Shown: positions 1-6,759 of the stretch, piece by piece
Layout of the letters: every line of letters starts with the position of its first letter
How positions within the stretch are numbered: the first letter of the stretch is position 1
Virus record (IMG/VR): IMGVR_UViG_3300012155_000195
From: a virus
Taxonomy: Duplodnaviria; Heunggongvirae; Uroviricota; Caudoviricetes
Direction: 5' to 3' (one strand)
DNA length: 6,759 nt
The notes under the pieces: generated by a model
The model's input: the letters and a program-made list of their open reading frames with translations, nothing else
Told to the model about the DNA's origin: nothing
Databases searched by the model: none
Program-made: the position numbers and the translations under genes

Positions 1-249
1 AACTGCAGTCAGTGAACCGATAAGCGTAGCAAACGTCGCTGAAAACACCGCCATCGTCAATGAATGCTGAGCTGCCTGCAACAGACTGTCGTTGTTCATC
101 AGCAGGCTATACCATTTAGTGGTAAAACCCTGCCAGTTGATGCCAAAGCGCGAGCTGTTGAAAGAGTTCACAATCAAAATAATGATTGGAATATACAGGT
201 ACGCGTAGATAGCGGTCATAAAACCGCCGCGAAGCAGTCGACCGATCAT
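1..249 (-). CDS. potC: Spermidine/putrescine ABC transporter permease PotC, N-terminal 83 codons (partial, runs off window at position 1)
   Basis: Minus-strand ATG at 249-247 preceded by AAGGTGGA RBS. Translation MIGRLLRGGFMTAIYAYLYIPIIILIVNSFNSSRFGINWQGFTTKWYSLLMNNDSLLQAAQHSLTMAVFSATFATLIGSLTAV matches my recollection of E. coli PotC N-terminus; hydrophobic TM1 present. About 50% GC, unlike adjacent AT-rich DNA. Not in the supplied ORF track because it is truncated by the window edge. Confidence 0.8.
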   Translation of the reverse strand, partial: MIGRLLRGGFMTAIYAYLYIPIIILIVNSFNSSRFGINWQGFTTKWYSLLMNNDSLLQAAQHSLTMAVFSATFATLIGSLTAV

Positions 250-300
250 TCGAGTTCCACCTTTTTATTCATAAGGTGGAGCACTTTCAGGATTTTGAAT
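246..300. other. Putative host-prophage junction (attL core region)
   Basis: Upstream reading frame ends KKVELE-TGA with the TGA overlapping the potC ATG (ATGA at 249-246), as expected for the potB-potC junction, but that frame is open for only 39 codons and is AT-rich. Perfect 7-bp inverted repeat ccacctt (257-263) / aaggtgg (273-279) with 9-nt loop. Abrupt compositional shift to AT-rich DNA to the right. Confidence 0.4.
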
Positions 301-318
301 TTATTCAACTTTTTCTCT

Positions 319-352
319 TCTCCAAAATCTCTCCAAAACTTTTCCCCAAAAA
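319..352. repeat. Three tandem ~11-bp direct repeats (tctccaaaatc / tctccaaaact / tttccccaaaaa), candidate arm-type integrase binding sites
   Basis: Direct repeats seen at 319-329, 330-340 and 341-352, about 70-100 bp from the putative core, on the int-proximal side. Lambda-type attP has three tandem arm-type sites at a comparable position. Confidence 0.35.
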
Positions 353-551
353 CAAGCCATGCATTCTACAGTATTTTCATTTATGCACGAATCTTACTAT
401 CCATTGACAATATTACTATTTTATCAAATCAAGTCATGCGGTTAGTGAACTTTGTGTGTTCGTTTTTTGTTCATTTACGATGATGATACTGACAATAGTG
501 GCTAGCTACGCAGGCATATAGAACAAATTAAAATCAATTTCAAGGAATTTA

Positions 552-580
552 TTGACGCTCTTCACGTTTTGTATGATACT
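552..580 (+). promoter_or_regulatory. Putative sigma70 promoter for the ATPase-TOPRIM operon
   Basis: TTGACG (552-557), 17-bp spacer, GATACT (575-580; 4/6 to TATAAT). About 30 bp upstream of the ATG at 611, which has a GGA-containing RBS at 599-603. Confidence 0.3.
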
Positions 581-610
581 AAATTCAACTTCCAAAAAGT
601 GGAAATAATT

Positions 611-1804
611 ATGATTTTTACTAGATTGAAATTTGTAAACCTTTGCGCATTTTCTGATGCAGAATTAAACCTTTCATTTCCCAGAAAGCTGGTTAACTCA
701 CCAATTGATGGTGAATTTTTGTTCGGGAGACCGAAGTTTTATTATCGCAAAGTATGTATCCTCACTGGAGCTAATGCTTCGGGAAAGACTTCCCTTGGTC
801 GTATGTTATGGGGGATTCAGCTTTTCTTGTCCCGGAAAAATTTGTATCAATCAGCTTTTCCTGTAAATGACAAAACCAAGAGTGCTTCCTTTGAGGCAGA
901 TTTTGCAACGGAAGGATTTTTGCATCATCGTATTTTCGTGAAGTTTAGATCCGATAAGTCTGGAACATATTTAATAAGTGAAGTTAAATACGCATCCGTA
1001 TTTATAGGAGAAAATGACTCTTGTGTCAAAACAACAAGAAAATTGGACAGAGTATTTCAAGAGTCAGGTCAGTATATTGCGAATAGCTATTACCATGCAG
1101 TGGCTGCTGATGGGGAATCTGTTTCTTTAGAGAATTTCAAGAAAAATGTGTTTCTTGGTGGATGGTATTATTTATTATCAAAAACAAAGGAAGAAACAAC
1201 AGAAATCTCTGGTTTAGATAAGAATATATTAGAACTTATCATGAAAACCTTTGATCCTAGTATAAAATCAGTTCTTGAATTAAGGGAAAATGATGGTGAA
1301 GAAAATGATAAAGATGTGTTAACGGGGTTTTCTATTCGTTTTCACAATAATGATAATGTTATTGTAACTAACTCTGGAGAAGTTGCTAATTGTGATCGGC
1401 TTTCACGTGGTACATACGATGCTGTAAAATTATCTCATTTTATTAGTTCTATAAATAGTGATTATATGGCATCGTCTGAAACAAATAATATAGCATGTAT
1501 GCTCTATTTTCTTGACGAAAGCATGGCTTATGTTCACTCAGAACTTGAAAGAGCTATCATAACTCTTATTATATCTAAATTGAAGATTAATAGTCAATTT
1601 TTCTATACAACGCATAATTGCGATATTTTTAAATTGGATTTGCCCATTCATTCGTATATTTTCATAAAGAAAGAGCATGATAGCTCAGTATTTGTAGATG
1701 CAAGTGAAATTCTTAAAAAGAATGACAGGAATTTAGCTAAATATGTTGAGAATGATGTTTTTGGTGTTCTTCCCGATTTGTCTTTGATTGAGGCGTTAAT
1801 ATAA
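611..1804 (+). CDS. ABC-type P-loop ATPase (AAA_21/AAA_15-like, OLD/AriA/AbiLi-like ATPase component), 397 aa
   Basis: ORF-track ORF 569..1804; I prefer ATG 611 (RBS 7 nt upstream) over the TTG at 569. Walker A GANASGKTS (767-793), signature-like LSRGT (1400-1414), Walker B MLYFLDE (1499-1519), H-loop TTH (1607-1615). About 200-aa insertion between Walker A and signature. Visibly AT-rich codon usage. Stop TAA overlaps the next ATG. Confidence 0.85.
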   Translation: MIFTRLKFVNLCAFSDAELNLSFPRKLVNSPIDGEFLFGRPKFYYRKVCILTGANASGKTSLGRMLWGIQLFLSRKNLYQSAFPVNDKTKSASFEADFATEGFLHHRIFVKFRSDKSGTYLISEVKYASVFIGENDSCVKTTRKLDRVFQESGQYIANSYYHAVAADGESVSLENFKKNVFLGGWYYLLSKTKEETTEISGLDKNILELIMKTFDPSIKSVLELRENDGEENDKDVLTGFSIRFHNNDNVIVTNSGEVANCDRLSRGTYDAVKLSHFISSINSDYMASSETNNIACMLYFLDESMAYVHSELERAIITLIISKLKINSQFFYTTHNCDIFKLDLPIHSYIFIKKEHDSSVFVDASEILKKNDRNLAKYVENDVFGVLPDLSLIEALI

Positions 1805-2346
1805 TGTCAAAAAATCAGAACGCAAAAATTATTTTTGTTGAAGGTGAAACAGAGTATGCCTTGTTTCAAAAGATGAAGCAAAAAGGTTTGATTAAATTCA
1901 AAAAAATTGTCAAGAAGAATTTTTGGGTTGATGATATAAAGAAATATGCAGTTAACATACCTAAAAATTGTGATTTAATAGTTGTTTTTGATAGTGATGT
2001 TATTGATAGAGTTGATAGATTTATTCAGAATGTTAATTACTTAGCAAGCAGAAAACATTCGATTTTTTTATTGCAACAGACCAGAAATTTCGAAGAGGAA
2101 ATCGCGTATTGCTGCTCTGTAACTTTAAATAAATTGATCGCTTCGTTTTGTAAATGCAAGACATCTGGAGTTGCAGATTTTAAGCGAGATTTTATATCTT
2201 CATCTAATCCTTTTGATAAGCTAGTGGCTTTAGGAATTAACCAGGATAAGTGGTTCAAAAGGGAGTTACATCATTCATTGTTAAGTTTATCAAAGTATAA
2301 ATCAGATTTTTCAACATATTTTAATGCGGATGTTATTAATTTATGA
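1804..2346 (+). CDS. Small TOPRIM-like putative nuclease (DUF4435 / DUF4276 / RloB-like effector component), 180 aa
   Basis: ATG at 1804 overlaps upstream stop (TAATG), indicating translational coupling. N-terminal KIIFVEGETE (E13 at 1840-1842, E15, E17) and LIVVFDSDVID (D63 at 1990-1992, D65 at 1996-1998) match the TOPRIM glutamate and DxD signatures. GAGG RBS at 1790-1793. Confidence 0.8.
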   Translation: MSKNQNAKIIFVEGETEYALFQKMKQKGLIKFKKIVKKNFWVDDIKKYAVNIPKNCDLIVVFDSDVIDRVDRFIQNVNYLASRKHSIFLLQQTRNFEEEIAYCCSVTLNKLIASFCKCKTSGVADFKRDFISSSNPFDKLVALGINQDKWFKRELHHSLLSLSKYKSDFSTYFNADVINL

Positions 2347-2369
2347 TATCTGTGTACTAATGTTATTCG

Positions 2370-2434
2370 TTACTATGGGAGAATTTCATTGTGCTGCTAA
2401 GAAATACAAAGCATAGTAAATCTCCTATTCTCCC
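2370..2434. repeat. Interleaved inverted repeats in the convergent intergenic region between the TOPRIM gene and int
   Basis: ttactatg (2370-2377) pairs with catagtaa (2412-2419); gggagaat (2377-2384) pairs with attctccc (2427-2434). No GC-rich stem plus T-run typical of an intrinsic terminator. Confidence 0.25.
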
Positions 2435-2526
2435 ACATAAGTTAAACGACAGTGCAAGTTTAAATTCGAATCATACTATCAGTATACCTTCAAGATGGCA
2501 ATTATGTTTTTATGGCAAATATCTTA

Positions 2527-3645
2527 TTAAATAACCAATTTAACCCATTCCTGACCACGAGTATCGTTATAACGATCGGTGGTTGCCTGGACTTTATGTC
2601 CCAGTAATGTTTTTGTATCAATACCCTGCGCGCGGTACAGTCGTTCTGACAGGGAGCGTTGTTCATGAAATGTTGGCGGAGTTTTTCCTGCTGGTGGAAT
2701 TATCCCTGCCAGATCCCGTGCTTTGGCAAAGTAGTCGCTCAGGTTGTCTTTACTCATCGGCTTTGGTTGTTTCTGGTGCCGACTATGGATTAGATATGGA
2801 CTTAATATTCTGTCTCGGCACCCATCAATAACTTCTTTTAACGTTATCCCAATGGCATCACAGCGTAGTGTAAGCGGTAACGCCAGACGCATTCCGGTTT
2901 TTCCCTGGGTGATATGCAAGTGTTCGTTCCACACATCTGAAAAACGCATGTGGCAAATGTCATCACGGCGCTGACCAGTAACAATCGCAAGAAGCATTGC
3001 GTTACGGATAAAGTGTTTTTCAGGCGTTGCGTTGTAAATTTTTTGCCAGTCTTCCAGGGTGAGTCTGGCTCTGGTTACTTTAGGGATCGGTTTACGGGTA
3101 GCCTCCGGAGGATTCCATCCAGGAGGAACTTCCCCTGCATGCTGTGCTTCTTTATAAATATCAACCCATAATCCACGATTTACTCTCGCTGTGCTGACCA
3201 TGTCTTTATCCAGCCACTCATCCAGTATTAATGCAAAGTCTCTTACTTCCAGTTCTTTCAATGGGTGGTTTCCCAGACGGGAAACCAGGTATGCAGCCAT
3301 TCGGGCTTTTTCTTTGTGAGTTGTAGCTGCAATATCTCCATTTTTCAGTCGCGTGTCCTGTATTTTCAGATATCGATCAACCCATGCCTTTAATCTGATA
3401 CCCCGACGTTTTGTTGCTGACGGACTTTCATCAATTTTGCGCATGAAATATTCAGCTTCTGCTGCAGCTATTCGCTGATTGGCTGTGGAAGCGATTTTTT
3501 CTGCCTTACCTTTGTCTGTTCCGAGTCCGTGAAATTTTCCAGTCACAGGATTTTTATACTGGTAGTAAACTCTGCCAGTTCTGCGATCAAACTTTTCGTA
3601 AAGACCAGCTACGTCAGTGCTGTTTTTTCGTGGCCTCGGTGACAT
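2527..3645 (-). CDS. int: Lambda-family tyrosine integrase (site-specific recombinase), 372 aa
   Basis: Clear collinear similarity to lambda Int by recall: N-terminal arm-binding region (YYQYKNPVTGKFHGLGTDK vs lambda YCYRDPRTGKEFGLGRDR), catalytic motifs TGQRRDD (Arg), QGKTG (Lys), TFHEQRSLSERLY (His/Arg), LLGHK (His), TDRYNDTRGQEW (Tyr nucleophile). AAGGAGA RBS 9 nt upstream of the ATG at 3645. Confidence 0.95.
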   Translation of the reverse strand: MSPRPRKNSTDVAGLYEKFDRRTGRVYYQYKNPVTGKFHGLGTDKGKAEKIASTANQRIAAAEAEYFMRKIDESPSATKRRGIRLKAWVDRYLKIQDTRLKNGDIAATTHKEKARMAAYLVSRLGNHPLKELEVRDFALILDEWLDKDMVSTARVNRGLWVDIYKEAQHAGEVPPGWNPPEATRKPIPKVTRARLTLEDWQKIYNATPEKHFIRNAMLLAIVTGQRRDDICHMRFSDVWNEHLHITQGKTGMRLALPLTLRCDAIGITLKEVIDGCRDRILSPYLIHSRHQKQPKPMSKDNLSDYFAKARDLAGIIPPAGKTPPTFHEQRSLSERLYRAQGIDTKTLLGHKVQATTDRYNDTRGQEWVKLVI

Positions 3646-3883
3646 GAGTTAAAATCTCCTTCAGTGCATCATCATCGCCAGTATGAATTTCCGGCGCAAT
3701 TCCCGTTTCACCAGGTCCAACAAATACTGCTCGGCGATCTATCAGCCAACGCCCACGAATTTTTTGTGGCCTTGGAACGATGTATCCTAGTTTTCCGTAT
3801 TTCACCAGGGTAGTGTTTGTTATTGGGAGACTGAACCGTTTTGGTTTCCACTCGTCGAGCGTTATCAGGTACTGTTCGCTCAT
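3614..3883 (-). CDS. xis: Excisionase (Xis-like recombination directionality factor), 89 aa
   Basis: Immediately upstream of int and overlapping it by 32 nt, as in lambda. N-terminal MSEQYLITLDEW resembles lambda Xis MYLTLQEW. Start chosen at ATG 3883 (GGAG RBS) rather than the GTG at 3892 used by the ORF track. Confidence 0.8.
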   Translation of the reverse strand: MSEQYLITLDEWKPKRFSLPITNTTLVKYGKLGYIVPRPQKIRGRWLIDRRAVFVGPGETGIAPEIHTGDDDALKEILTHVTEATKKQH

Positions 3884-3944
3884 GGCTATCACTCCGGAAC
3901 GCGCCAGTTGCAGAATACCAACGACAACTGGCGACGGTTGAACA

Positions 3945-6410
3945 TTAAAAATCAGCCTGACTCGGGATCAGTTTTTGCCAGATAGCTGAAACGTATTTTG
4001 CCTGGTAACGGGCGTCATCAAGTGCATTGTGGCGCACCCCTTCGAACGGAATAGCCGTTCTGGCATCGAAGTCTATGGCTTTCCCCAGCTCAACGATTGT
4101 GCGTACATCGCGATCGTTGGACCAGCGCCACGGGCAGGGGATACCATGTCGCTCATATGAACGGCGTAAAATCACGTTGTCGAAGTTGGCTCCATTCCCC
4201 CAGACCCGGACAAAAAATTCACCGGAGTTTTCGTCGATAAATTCCCGCAGTTGCAGCAGTGCATCGTCTAACGGGATTTGATTTACCAAAGTTGCAGATC
4301 TGGCCTCGCTGGACTGTGCCAGCCACCATTCGATGGTGGAACCATCAGGAACAGCACCTTTGTCCATTGCGTCAACTAGGCTGATGACAACATAAAATAT
4401 TGGTCCAATTTCTCCGGTCTGCGGATCGAAAAATATTGCACCTATTGAGATGATCGGGGCATCTGGATTTTTTCCCATGGTTTCAAGGTCGATCATCAGA
4501 TGGTGCCACACCCTGCTGGTGGATGTGATTTGGTGATGACCGTTCATATTAATTAAGGGATCTGTCGCCTCGCCAGTTTCATTATCGCTGGCGTGATGCT
4601 GATTGCCGCCAGGGTTCTCCTTGTGTGGATGTTCAGCGCCTTCCATTTCCTCTGGATCATTTTCCTGAACTTCAACCTGATTCTCTTCATCGAATGTTTC
4701 CTGGTATGTTGCAGCGCCCATCACCGCGCCACAATCAGGGCAGTTGTCACCGCCGGTCTGACCGCAGGCGGTGCAGACTTTTTCCGCTTCCTGTTGCGCT
4801 ACTGGCTCAGGTTGTTTCGTTTCTGGCTCGTTTTGTAACGCATTTGGGCTGTTGTGTTTCGCTTTCTGGTCGTTCTGTTCCGTTTCTTGCTGGTTCTGGT
4901 TCACTGAATCGCGGGGGTCAATCCCCTTCACCCATTTCGGATCATTCGGGTCGCTAATCCCTGCAACAAATTCACCGCGAGAGGCAGCAAGCAACTTATC
5001 GGCGTCAGGCTGGCTGATATTGGCTGCCTGCATAATTTTGTTTACTTCGTCAGCGGTAACTTTTACCTGATTAACTGGATCTACCTGTTTCTGAGTATCC
5101 AGCGATTGCGTGTCCTGGCGATGTTCAGTTGTATCCGGTTCCATTGTTTCAGCCGTTGCCTGTTCATCTGCCATTGCGTCAGACGGTTGTGATTTTTCCT
5201 CATTATTTTTTTCTTCTTCTGTTTCGCGTTCAGCAGCCAGTTCGCGGTTAACTTCTTCCAGGATATCTTTTTCCGGTGTATGTCGTGCAGCAGCGAGAGT
5301 TTCCTCGGTAGGGTTCTCGTGATCAGTCTCTGTTAAATAGGCGTTAATATACCCCTGAAGGCGCCCCGGGTAGTGATAAAACTCAGGGTGTGCGCTTCGG
5401 ATAAGTGCAAAAATAGCGGCACGGGAATAATCCAGAATACCCGGGGTTGAGCGAAGTGCTGCGGACCATTCTTTGAACGGACTTTCTTTCTTCCGGACGA
5501 CTTCTTTTGCGCGACGATAAACGCTGCCCGGGATTTCATAAATATTAAAATCCATCGGAAGTGTGGCCGCTGCAATCTCCACATCCAGCGTATCGAGGGT
5601 GTGCACTAAATTCGGATTGCGATCGGTTTTGTTCCCGCCGCCAGCATTAGCACCGGAAGCCGTGCGGGTGATGCGTGAAACACGATTCCCCTTCATCCAC
5701 TCTTTTGTAAGCAGACCGCGATCGGTGTAGTCAGTGTCAAGGTATGCTTCGATGAAAGCAGTCATCACCCCCAGTTCTGAATTTACGGGGGCGGGAAAAA
5801 CACTGCCAGTATCCCGAACCAGTTTGTATAAATCCCGAATCTCCAGTGGCTCCAGTTGAGCTGCTTTATTTGAAATGGCACGGATTGTAACTGCAGGGAG
5901 TTCCTCATCCAGCGCACTATGTAATGCCCGAAGTTCTTCCCGTGAAACGTGCGTTACTGGTTTTTCGTTGCCGCGTTGAGCAAGCCAGCGAATGGGCAGC
6001 TCCTGACCGGAAACCGGCAGGAGCATGTTCTCCTCAATCTCTGTCATTTCTTCGCCGTTGACGTTGGTATTGTCAGTGCTGGCTGGTTTGTCCTGAACAG
6101 AGGGGGAGGGCGCGATAAGTACCATTGTGATACCATCTTCCCCGCCTTTTTCGTATCGGTTGCAGAATTCGGTATCAAACACGCCTTCCGGAGGAAGGTC
6201 ATTCACAACGGGTAAATGGACGCGAACAGGTTTTTTAAAATCCTCTTCGTCAAATCCGGCATCGTCCATTGCGACAACACCGCGTGATATTGCAACCGAT
6301 AATTTTTTTGCTGTGCGCCAGTAAAAACCGCCTTTAATCCCAAGGCGTTTTCTGACTTTGTCATTTTTGGCTTCGTAATATAGTGCAATTTCTTCTTTAT
6401 CAGTGCTCAT
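3945..6410 (-). CDS. Exodeoxyribonuclease VIII-like mosaic protein with acidic linker, zinc-ribbon-like CxxC..CxxC motif and C-terminal DnaQ-type DEDDh 3'-5' exonuclease domain, 821 aa
   Basis: Long ORF with GAGG RBS upstream of ATG 6410. C-terminal domain has Exo I MIDLETMG (D641 at 4488-4490, E643 at 4482-4484), Exo II GNGANFD (D744) and Exo III HNALDDARYQAKY (H794, D799; 4014-4031). CTACG..CPDCG at residues 546-560 (4731-4775). Glu/Asp/Gln-rich low-complexity regions around residues 360-440 and 500-620. The N-terminal ~350 aa resemble prophage exonuclease VIII (RecE-family) N-terminal regions by recollection only. Confidence 0.85.
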   Translation of the reverse strand: MSTDKEEIALYYEAKNDKVRKRLGIKGGFYWRTAKKLSVAISRGVVAMDDAGFDEEDFKKPVRVHLPVVNDLPPEGVFDTEFCNRYEKGGEDGITMVLIAPSPSVQDKPASTDNTNVNGEEMTEIEENMLLPVSGQELPIRWLAQRGNEKPVTHVSREELRALHSALDEELPAVTIRAISNKAAQLEPLEIRDLYKLVRDTGSVFPAPVNSELGVMTAFIEAYLDTDYTDRGLLTKEWMKGNRVSRITRTASGANAGGGNKTDRNPNLVHTLDTLDVEIAAATLPMDFNIYEIPGSVYRRAKEVVRKKESPFKEWSAALRSTPGILDYSRAAIFALIRSAHPEFYHYPGRLQGYINAYLTETDHENPTEETLAAARHTPEKDILEEVNRELAAERETEEEKNNEEKSQPSDAMADEQATAETMEPDTTEHRQDTQSLDTQKQVDPVNQVKVTADEVNKIMQAANISQPDADKLLAASRGEFVAGISDPNDPKWVKGIDPRDSVNQNQQETEQNDQKAKHNSPNALQNEPETKQPEPVAQQEAEKVCTACGQTGGDNCPDCGAVMGAATYQETFDEENQVEVQENDPEEMEGAEHPHKENPGGNQHHASDNETGEATDPLINMNGHHQITSTSRVWHHLMIDLETMGKNPDAPIISIGAIFFDPQTGEIGPIFYVVISLVDAMDKGAVPDGSTIEWWLAQSSEARSATLVNQIPLDDALLQLREFIDENSGEFFVRVWGNGANFDNVILRRSYERHGIPCPWRWSNDRDVRTIVELGKAIDFDARTAIPFEGVRHNALDDARYQAKYVSAIWQKLIPSQADF

Positions 6411-6500
6411 TGATAAACCTCATTACAGATTTAAGGGTGAACAAATCCCTGCCATTGCTGGCATATAAAAATGAAACCGGATATTAATTACGGTACTGGT

Positions 6501-6692
6501 TTAAAGCCCTGCCGGGACTTCGTTATTATCCATGCGAATAACTTTATCGACCGGATAACAGTTACCGGGAATTTTCTGTTCCGCTGCAGCAGCCATGCAT
6601 TCTTTCATTGAGCCATATATACCAGTAACCACATCAACCGGTTCACCTGTATTAAGAAAAACTGTCAGAACGAGTGCAAATGCTGTATTCAT
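6501..6692 (-). CDS. Small hypothetical prophage protein (63 aa) with hydrophobic N-terminus
   Basis: ATG at 6692 with AAAGGA RBS 8 nt upstream. N-terminus MNTAFALVLTVFL looks like a signal peptide or membrane anchor. The ORF track extends it to 6746 but that extension lacks this support and reaches the window edge. Confidence 0.45.
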   Translation of the reverse strand: MNTAFALVLTVFLNTGEPVDVVTGIYGSMKECMAAAAEQKIPGNCYPVDKVIRMDNNEVPAGL

Positions 6693-6759
6693 TGTCAGCG
6701 TCCTTTTTGCATCAGGCGTAAACGGGCCAGCATTGAAACAATGCATATTTGATTTAATA

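Follow-up and report, generated by a model that had tools for sequence, protein, structure and literature searches.

In the published classification of anti-phage systems, AbiL is grouped with PARIS, MADS3-4, Gabija and OLD, all of which combine an ATP-binding cassette (ABC) ATPase of the AAA_15/21 type with a TOPRIM nuclease (PMC11464382; PMC13064643). In PARIS, AriB is kept sequestered by a hexamer of AriA; once a phage trigger sets it free, AriB cleaves tRNA. The P2 OLD protein has also been reported as a tRNase, activated by destabilisation of its tetramer (bioRxiv 10.64898/2026.07.10.737580), and GajA cuts DNA. The present article concerns a two-gene cassette that appears to belong to this group, located at positions 381-2526 on the plus strand of the IMG/VR virus record IMGVR_UViG_3300012155_000195. 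The whole stretch of 6,759 nucleotides, referred to here as the window, represents the left end of a lambdoid, Rac-like Escherichia coli prophage integrated between potB and potC. The cassette is interpreted as an acquired ATPase and TOPRIM pair occupying an optional slot of the prophage, most likely acting as a defence of the abortive-infection type, an interpretation to which we assign a probability of roughly two in three. On the basis of its predicted proteins, it would be a divergent member of the known AbiL/OLD-like kind of ATPase and TOPRIM system, with an unusually small effector.

The first gene of the cassette (611-1804, plus strand) encodes an ABC-type ATPase of 397 amino acids (aa), described as AbiLi-like and AAA_15/AAA_21 on the basis of PADLOC, Pfam, sequence motifs and a structural model. 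Its best match in the defence library is the PADLOC profile AbiLi (E = 2.6e-25; residues 9-406 against profile positions 42-289 of 326), with further PADLOC matches to mad3 (8e-13), AriA (3e-9, 1.7e-7 and 3e-4) and PtuA (1.3e-7). It also matches Pfam AAA_15 at 3e-8, which is above the Pfam cutoff, and the PHROG family phrog_5836 at 8e-81. The motif residues comprise G53, N55 and G58-K59-T60 in Walker A, R263, S265, G267 and T268 in the signature, D302-E303 in Walker B, and H335 in the H-loop, and these ABC motifs show no or almost no variation among 71 homologues whose identity goes down to 35%. The AbiLi match and the invariant ABC motifs together give the protein the features that define the first gene of an AbiL system. 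The AlphaFold (AF2) model of the ATPase has a predicted local distance difference test score (pLDDT) of 89.1, and its Foldseek neighbours include PtuA (from Septu and retron systems), the heads of SMC and Rad50, GajA and Thermus OLD, with E values from 1e-10 to 1e-8; no PARIS chains were found among its top 50 structural neighbours. Searches of PDB sequences with the ATPase, both as a single sequence and as a profile, returned nothing, and the NCBIfam search gave no meaningful matches.

The second gene (1804-2346, plus strand) begins within the stop codon of the ATPase gene, with an overlap of 1 nt (TAATG), and encodes a protein of 180 aa that is predicted to be an OLD-type, AbiLii-like TOPRIM nuclease. 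The protein has no Pfam family and matches phrog_10204 at 2e-63. An exhaustive profile search assembled a family of 348 cluster representatives (clustered at 50% identity), nearly all of which are 165-190 aa long, and 133 of these were aligned, with a mean column identity of 21%. Across the 133 members D63, D65 and E97 are invariant, and conservation reaches 90% or more at E13, G14, E17, N39, N76, Q92, N95, E99 and K127. In the structural model (pLDDT 87.8), E13 and E17 follow the strand at 8-12, D63xD65 ends the strand at 57-63 (strand 3), and E97 and E99 lie in the helix at 96-103 after strand 4. The two-metal site of Burkholderia OLD consists of E400, E404, D455xD457, T506/E508 (in the helical domain, on its first helix) and K562 (PMC6755086), and the residues of the small protein occur in the same order as this catalytic set, including the E-x3-E spacing. 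The residue pattern of an OLD-like TOPRIM domain, namely a Glu after beta-1, a DxD after beta-3, additional acidic residues and a Lys, is found here in both order and conservation.

When the 133 family members were scanned one by one, 82 matched PADLOC AbiLii, with a best value of 1e-7, and 17 matched Pfam OLD-like_TOPRIM, with a best value of 1e-6, while a few matched the GajA, mad4, HEC-01B, RloB or Toprim models (RloB in 3 of 133). A Foldseek search of the small-protein model against the PDB yielded only generic Rossmann, SIS and CheY folds (E > 0.02); GajA, Ts OLD and class 2 OLD turn up in the fold searches of both cargo proteins. The assignment of the predicted nuclease to the TOPRIM family is built on several weak but convergent lines, combined with a strong conservation pattern.

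The two genes are adjacent and co-oriented, and they are inherited together, as is the case for the AbiL pair. Both open reading frames (ORFs) are intact in all 11 copies retrieved. Compared with the window, the alleles of the ATPase gene show 20-23 synonymous and 1-2 nonsynonymous codon changes, and the ATPase is under strong purifying selection; the small gene shows 12-14 synonymous and no nonsynonymous changes, a count that is biased, since an exact match to the protein was the criterion for retrieving those loci. In prophages of E. coli, Citrobacter and Leclercia, homologous pairs at 53-60% identity are present at other positions, with gene order and gene sizes retained. The E. coli variant (53% identity) is located beside a giant LPD/MuF polyvalent protein. 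In Citrobacter (60% identity) the pair is flanked by baseplate genes and replication genes, and in Leclercia (59% identity) it lies close to a lysozyme gene and to a short integrase-family ORF of 179 aa. Moron or defence cassettes behave in this way. In the E. coli variant (loci L107-L109, 6637-12534), the pair is convergent with the gene for the polyvalent protein, which is 2,792 aa long and belongs to another prophage.

As far as can be judged from the predicted proteins, the architecture of the cassette is that of AbiL, PARIS (AriA/AriB) and the split form of OLD. With AbiL of Lactococcus lactis, a PADLOC/DefenseFinder family, it shares a two-gene operon in which an ABC/AAA_21 ATPase comes first and a small TOPRIM/OLD-like protein second, together with the AbiLi match of the ATPase and the AbiLii matches of most aligned members of the small-protein family. 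It differs from AbiL in that the AbiLii match of the small protein in the window is marginal, that no family member scores better than 1e-7, that RloB matches are confined to the three members mentioned above, and that the host of the cassette is an enterobacterial prophage, whereas AbiL is carried on a lactococcal plasmid. PARIS likewise comprises a sensing ABC ATPase together with a distinct TOPRIM effector, and it also occurs in phages and satellites next to integrases; the AriA matches of the cassette ATPase are, however, much weaker than its AbiLi match. The predicted effector of 180 aa is about half the size of AriB (~35 kDa), the ATPase of 397 aa differs from AriA (~55 kDa), and the small protein has no match to DUF4435 (PF14491), the domain that characterises the PARIS effector. 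DUF4435 was also absent from the 25 Pfam families most often matched by the 133 members. The OLD family (P2 Old, Thermus and Burkholderia OLD, and Gabija GajA) shows the same ATPase and TOPRIM domain families and matching two-metal residues, but there a single polypeptide contains both domains, and GajA requires the GajB helicase, whereas the cassette consists of separate genes without a helicase, so that the similarity is at the superfamily level only.

The cassette is clearly set apart from its surroundings by composition. The guanine plus cytosine (GC) content of 381-2526 is 31.7% (681/2146 bases), against 47.7% for the phage backbone at 2527-6759 (chi-square 148, p = 4.7e-34), and the potC fragment at 1-249 has a GC content of 47.4%. 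The lowest-GC interval of 2146 bp in the sequence begins at position 398. In 200-bp windows, the GC fraction ranges from 0.245 to 0.415 (mean 0.318) within the segment and from 0.38 to 0.55 (mean 0.48) outside it, and the GC fraction at third codon positions (GC3) is 0.26 in both cargo genes, 0.38-0.48 in int, xis and exo, and 0.59 in potC. An earlier note, made from the sequence of the window alone, had described a low-GC cargo island at 256-2526 and proposed windowed GC and codon usage as the check, and the windowed GC and GC3 values bear the description out. The interval given there stands in part: its start is close to the host/phage junction and its end is the base before the int stop codon, but its first ~125 bp belong to the attachment (att) core and the P' arm rather than to cargo. 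Two further statements of the note agree with the annotation. The cargo operon is convergent with the early-left genes, with the cargo on the plus strand and int, xis and exo on the minus strand, and the lambda-like arrangement taken there as the reference is seen in the relatives with an empty slot, in which int adjoins the P' arm.

Alignments with the other alleles place the left breakpoint of the variable segment at ~378-400; its right breakpoint coincides with the stop codon of int, which is TAA in the window and TGA in the other alleles. On the left, positions 272-380 form a conserved phage P' arm common to the empty, DUF2335, ORF6N and AbiL-like alleles. In empty-slot relatives, 167 bp separate the end of int from the start codon of potC, and int is ~48 bp away from where the shared P'-arm sequence starts. 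Because the slot is bounded by the P' arm of attL on one side and the stop codon of int on the other, the cassette is part of the phage genome and is carried along with it. A reading of the AT-rich segment as host sequence lying beyond the prophage was considered and rejected, given the conserved P' arm on its host-proximal side. A search for flanking direct or inverted repeats of the transposon or integron kind found only short, AT-rich matches at chance level.

The slot was further surveyed in 5,426 complete E. coli genomes, 1,632 of which carry the integrase gene. An empty slot, recognised as the contiguous, uninterrupted P' arm-int junction of an empty-slot relative, is present in 1,406 genomes; an unrelated DUF2335 cargo of 0.9 kb (a 67-aa ORF and a DUF2335 protein) in 210-211; the AT-rich cassette in 9, always at this site; and an ORF6N cargo (a small ORF and an ORF6N protein) in at least one, strain A8. 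Since these counts sum to about 1,625-1,627, few further alleles are possible in this collection. The interval from this shared P' arm to the stop codon of int thus occurs as four alleles, and ~86% of int carriers have the empty one. The slot is genuinely variable and constitutes a modest hotspot. Variability among related prophages with the same int, xis and site, as the note had anticipated, is therefore what the genomes contain; its term defence hotspot holds only as regards a variable cargo slot, as there are only about four states, with the slot empty in most carriers, and no enrichment in defence systems, the rare AbiL-like allele alone being defence-like. The accompanying suggestion of horizontally acquired accessory or defence cargo fits the predicted two-gene ATPase and TOPRIM system of the AbiL/OLD kind, for which anti-phage activity would be expected.

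The defence and moron hotspots of P2, of P4 and of the phage-inducible chromosomal islands (PICI) offer the nearest comparison for the position. A location between int and att has been reported for ~3% of P2 defence systems and for PICI, and the P2/P4 survey called such a position atypical (PMC13586616). The present slot resembles those hotspots in being a variable site with conserved phage flanks and alternative cargo, and it differs from them in lying in a lambdoid prophage at potB/potC, with the few alleles described above and one recognisable defence. Regarding the other cargos, the idea that everything in the slot is low in GC was rejected, as the two other cargos have GC fractions of 0.43 and 0.47 (43% and 47%). 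The DUF2335 cargo (locus L003, 3558-4206; also L015 and L045), at 43% GC, is the commonest in the slot and occurs in O26, O121 and other lineages of Shiga toxin-producing E. coli (STEC); its 67-aa ORF overlaps the gene for the 155-aa DUF2335 protein, and it has a weak PADLOC match to PD-T4-6 (E = 0.002). The ORF6N allele (L106, 3674-4493; E. coli A8, from mouse) shares the small ORF region upstream, after which comes an ORF6N protein in the opposite orientation; this protein matches the PADLOC candidate family PDC-S05 at 6e-7.

The prophages that carry the cassette differ in their immunity and early regions, and the allele of the P' arm is linked to the cargo, with 94-98.5% identity to the window in cassette carriers against 88-92% in non-carriers (window 250-380 compared with L016-L025 and L002-L015). 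The int gene is 96-99% identical in all prophages compared, and the exonuclease region is mosaic, at 86-92% identity and often only partly alignable. The cassette itself, at 97.4-99.8% identity, is better conserved than the surrounding backbone. The linkage of the P'-arm allele, together with the differing immunity regions, suggests that the cassette, along with its immediate flank, spreads by homologous recombination among related prophages. Of 80 IMG/VR loci found with Int, 62 are trimmed exactly at the int stop codon and so carry no information on the slot, and the rest are empty, DUF2335 or attP-like alleles. A search of the plasmid collection gave no match, and the sole match in the phage collection was Acinetobacter phage Ab105-3phi, with 72% identity over 258 nt.

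For the mode of action, we infer expression, complex formation, the trigger, the nuclease target and the anti-phage phenotype by analogy with the characterised relatives. In the lysogen, the operon would rely on a promoter of its own, for which a candidate sigma-70 site lies at 552-580 on the plus strand (TTGACG, a 17-nt spacer and GATACT; 9/12 in the consensus scan), ~30 nt upstream of the start codon of the ATPase. The ATPase would assemble with the 180-aa nuclease, restrain it and sense infection, and a phage signal, either a phage protein or an aberrant nucleic acid, would release or activate the nuclease. The nuclease might then cut nucleic acid by two-metal catalysis, with tRNA as the target, as for AriB and P2 OLD, or DNA, as for GajA, and this cleavage would stop the infection by abortive infection.

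Several observations weigh against the defence interpretation. At the level of the effector, the small protein in the window matches AbiLii only marginally (E = 5e-4, profile positions 30-53 of 170) and OLD-like_TOPRIM at E = 0.01, below the Pfam cutoff, and profile searches of the PDB with it found nothing significant, the best being 1t6t at E = 0.14. The entry 1t6t is a 118-aa 'putative protein' of A. aeolicus, which we take to be a Toprim/RNase M5-like domain, and its EG and DxD motifs align with the small protein. In RefSeq the two products go by no more than 'AAA family ATPase' and 'hypothetical protein'. How AbiL itself acts is not known (PMC13064643), and AbiL membership therefore predicts little about the target. 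At the level of the locus, the cassette is rare among the genomes surveyed, and the DUF2335 and ORF6N cargos that share its slot are not recognised defence genes, having weak matches only. The promoter evidence is weak in such AT-rich DNA, in which 17 sites were found against 11.3 expected, and a site scan of the non-coding spacer that runs from the cargo operon to the stop codon of int (2347-2526) showed no terminator. Folding of 2335-2535 gave no stable structure (z = -0.36 against shuffles), and the last ~40 nt of the spacer are loosely similar to the spacer of the empty allele. With neither a terminator nor a stable structure between the operon and int, antisense transcription is possible, and cargo transcripts may run into int.

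This arrangement also enters into a more speculative extension of the defence interpretation, which we consider unlikely. The ~175-aa family could form a distinct class of minimal OLD-type TOPRIM effectors operating with a compact ABC ATPase, with a trigger and a target that may differ from those of PARIS, OLD and Gabija, and the unterminated convergent placement might couple defence to antisense control of int and to excision.

Alternatively, the pair might be an addiction module resembling a toxin-antitoxin (TA) system, in which a TOPRIM toxin restrained by the ATPase stabilises the prophage or this end of it instead of defending the host. The tight coupling of the two overlapping genes agrees with this, as does their position next to int and att, where loss by excision would be felt, and the layout of a nuclease with a restraining ATPase has been called type II TA-like for PARIS (PMC13064643). 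In PARIS, however, deletion of either gene is non-toxic, which argues against a simple TA system (PMC9122126), and 86% of the prophages with this int persist without such a module. The TA and defence readings are, moreover, not mutually exclusive. Taken as a replacement for defence, a pure addiction role is in our assessment quite improbable.

Slightly greater doubt attaches to a role in the lytic cycle or in conflict between elements, where the cassette would provide a nuclease for host takeover or anti-defence, or interfere with satellites or other prophages at induction, rather than confer immunity on the lysogen. Both genes match PHROG families, and homologous pairs are located within early or structural regions of prophages, as such a role would allow. 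Nevertheless, transcription opposite to the early-left operon, together with a candidate promoter of its own, is the classic layout of a moron expressed in the lysogen, the cassette is dispensable for the phage, as most relatives lack it, and all characterised pairs in which an ABC ATPase is accompanied by a TOPRIM protein are defences (PMC13064643; PMC11464382). Finally, an inert hitchhiker, either decaying foreign DNA or an abutting host island without current function, might be suggested by the extreme AT content, the rarity and the lack of an annotated function, but it is largely refuted by the selection pattern on the intact ORFs, by catalytic motifs that are invariant across hundreds of distant homologues and by a location between the P' arm and int, inside the element, and can be given almost no credence.

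Under the preferred reading as a defence cassette, the locus adds an uncharacterised and probably under-detected branch to the ABC ATPase and TOPRIM (AbiL/PARIS/OLD) superfamily, its effector being unusually small, annotated as a 'hypothetical protein' and without a Pfam family. The principle of defence cargo carried by prophages is already established, and the cassette is a rare example of it, not a new principle. The survey also documents, with counts, an optional slot between attL and int in a very common family of E. coli prophages, found in 30% of complete genomes, including STEC lineages. A system of 2.1 kb is easy to clone and could help to decide whether AbiL-type systems are tRNases like AriB and P2 OLD.

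The host junction and the att site can be delimited as follows. The window begins with the 5' part of potC (1-249, minus strand), encoding a spermidine/putrescine ABC permease, with its start codon at 247-249 according to the RefSeq annotation of matching loci; this fragment shows 95% identity to potC of K-12 and 98-99.6% to that of some other E. coli lineages. Identity of the window to the uninterrupted K-12 potB/potC junction (attB) stops at base 271. On the phage side, the IMG/VR contigs L033, L099 and L083 share sequence with the window and leave host sequence beyond the 14-mer CACCTTTTTATTCA. The K-12 identity end at 271 and the divergence of these attP-like contigs past the 14-mer place the attL core, CACCTTTTTATTCA, at 258-271, the 14 bp common to K-12 attB, attL and the attP-like phage contigs. 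All three contigs have an empty slot and continue past the core into non-host sequence (…GGTGAACGAATTAGATGATTAA…), and are probably examples of attP in the circular phage or, failing that, of a second context of integration. Within the P' arm, three direct repeats of the form T(C/T)(C/T)CCAAAA can be read from the sequence at 319-327, 330-338 and 343-351, in the order TCTCCAAAA, TCTCCAAAA, TCCCCAAAA and with a spacing of 11-13 nt. These repeats look like candidate arm-type sites P'1-P'3, to which Int would bind, with a consensus unlike that of lambda.

The potB/potC junction is a well-known site of prophage integration in STEC. The 14-bp core sits in the last codons of potB, and with the prophage in place the potABCD operon is broken at the boundary of potB and potC. 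In the attP-like sequence, the potB reading frame ends in a different C-terminus, …KKVSELDD* instead of …KKVELE* (window 246-290; L005 2617-2650; L033 7255-7300). At attL, potC retains its ATG and ~25 bp upstream, and the whole prophage separates it from the potA promoter. Expression of potCD in the lysogen might come from transcription reading through from int or, alternatively, from a promoter located within the P' arm, and the 2.1-kb cassette lengthens the distance further.

The remaining genes of the window belong to the phage backbone and are all on the minus strand, and an Rfam scan of the whole window detected no RNA family. A lambda-type tyrosine integrase of 372 aa is encoded at 2527-3645 (Pfam Arm-DNA-bind_1, 3.7e-21; Phage_integrase, 2.1e-18). 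It is followed by an excisionase of 89 aa at 3614-3883, identified by Pfam Exc (7.8e-5) and by the RefSeq label of the matching gene in relatives. The excisionase sequence encoded in the window recurs without change in many recorded assemblies (49,121 index blocks). The next early-left operon gene beyond the exonuclease, at 6501-6746, is an ORF of the DUF1482 family (Pfam, 2e-21) with an uncertain start codon. The exonuclease itself, an early-left protein of 821 aa encoded at 3945-6410 (Pfam Rv2179c-like, 3e-68; Exonuc_VIII, 1.4e-25), has a RecE (Exonuc_VIII) region at its N-terminus and an Rv2179c-like 3'-5' exoribonuclease domain at its C-terminus. Its relatives alternate between the RecE N-terminus and a YdfE_N/YdfE_C N-terminus, which indicates that the exonuclease gene is itself mosaic.

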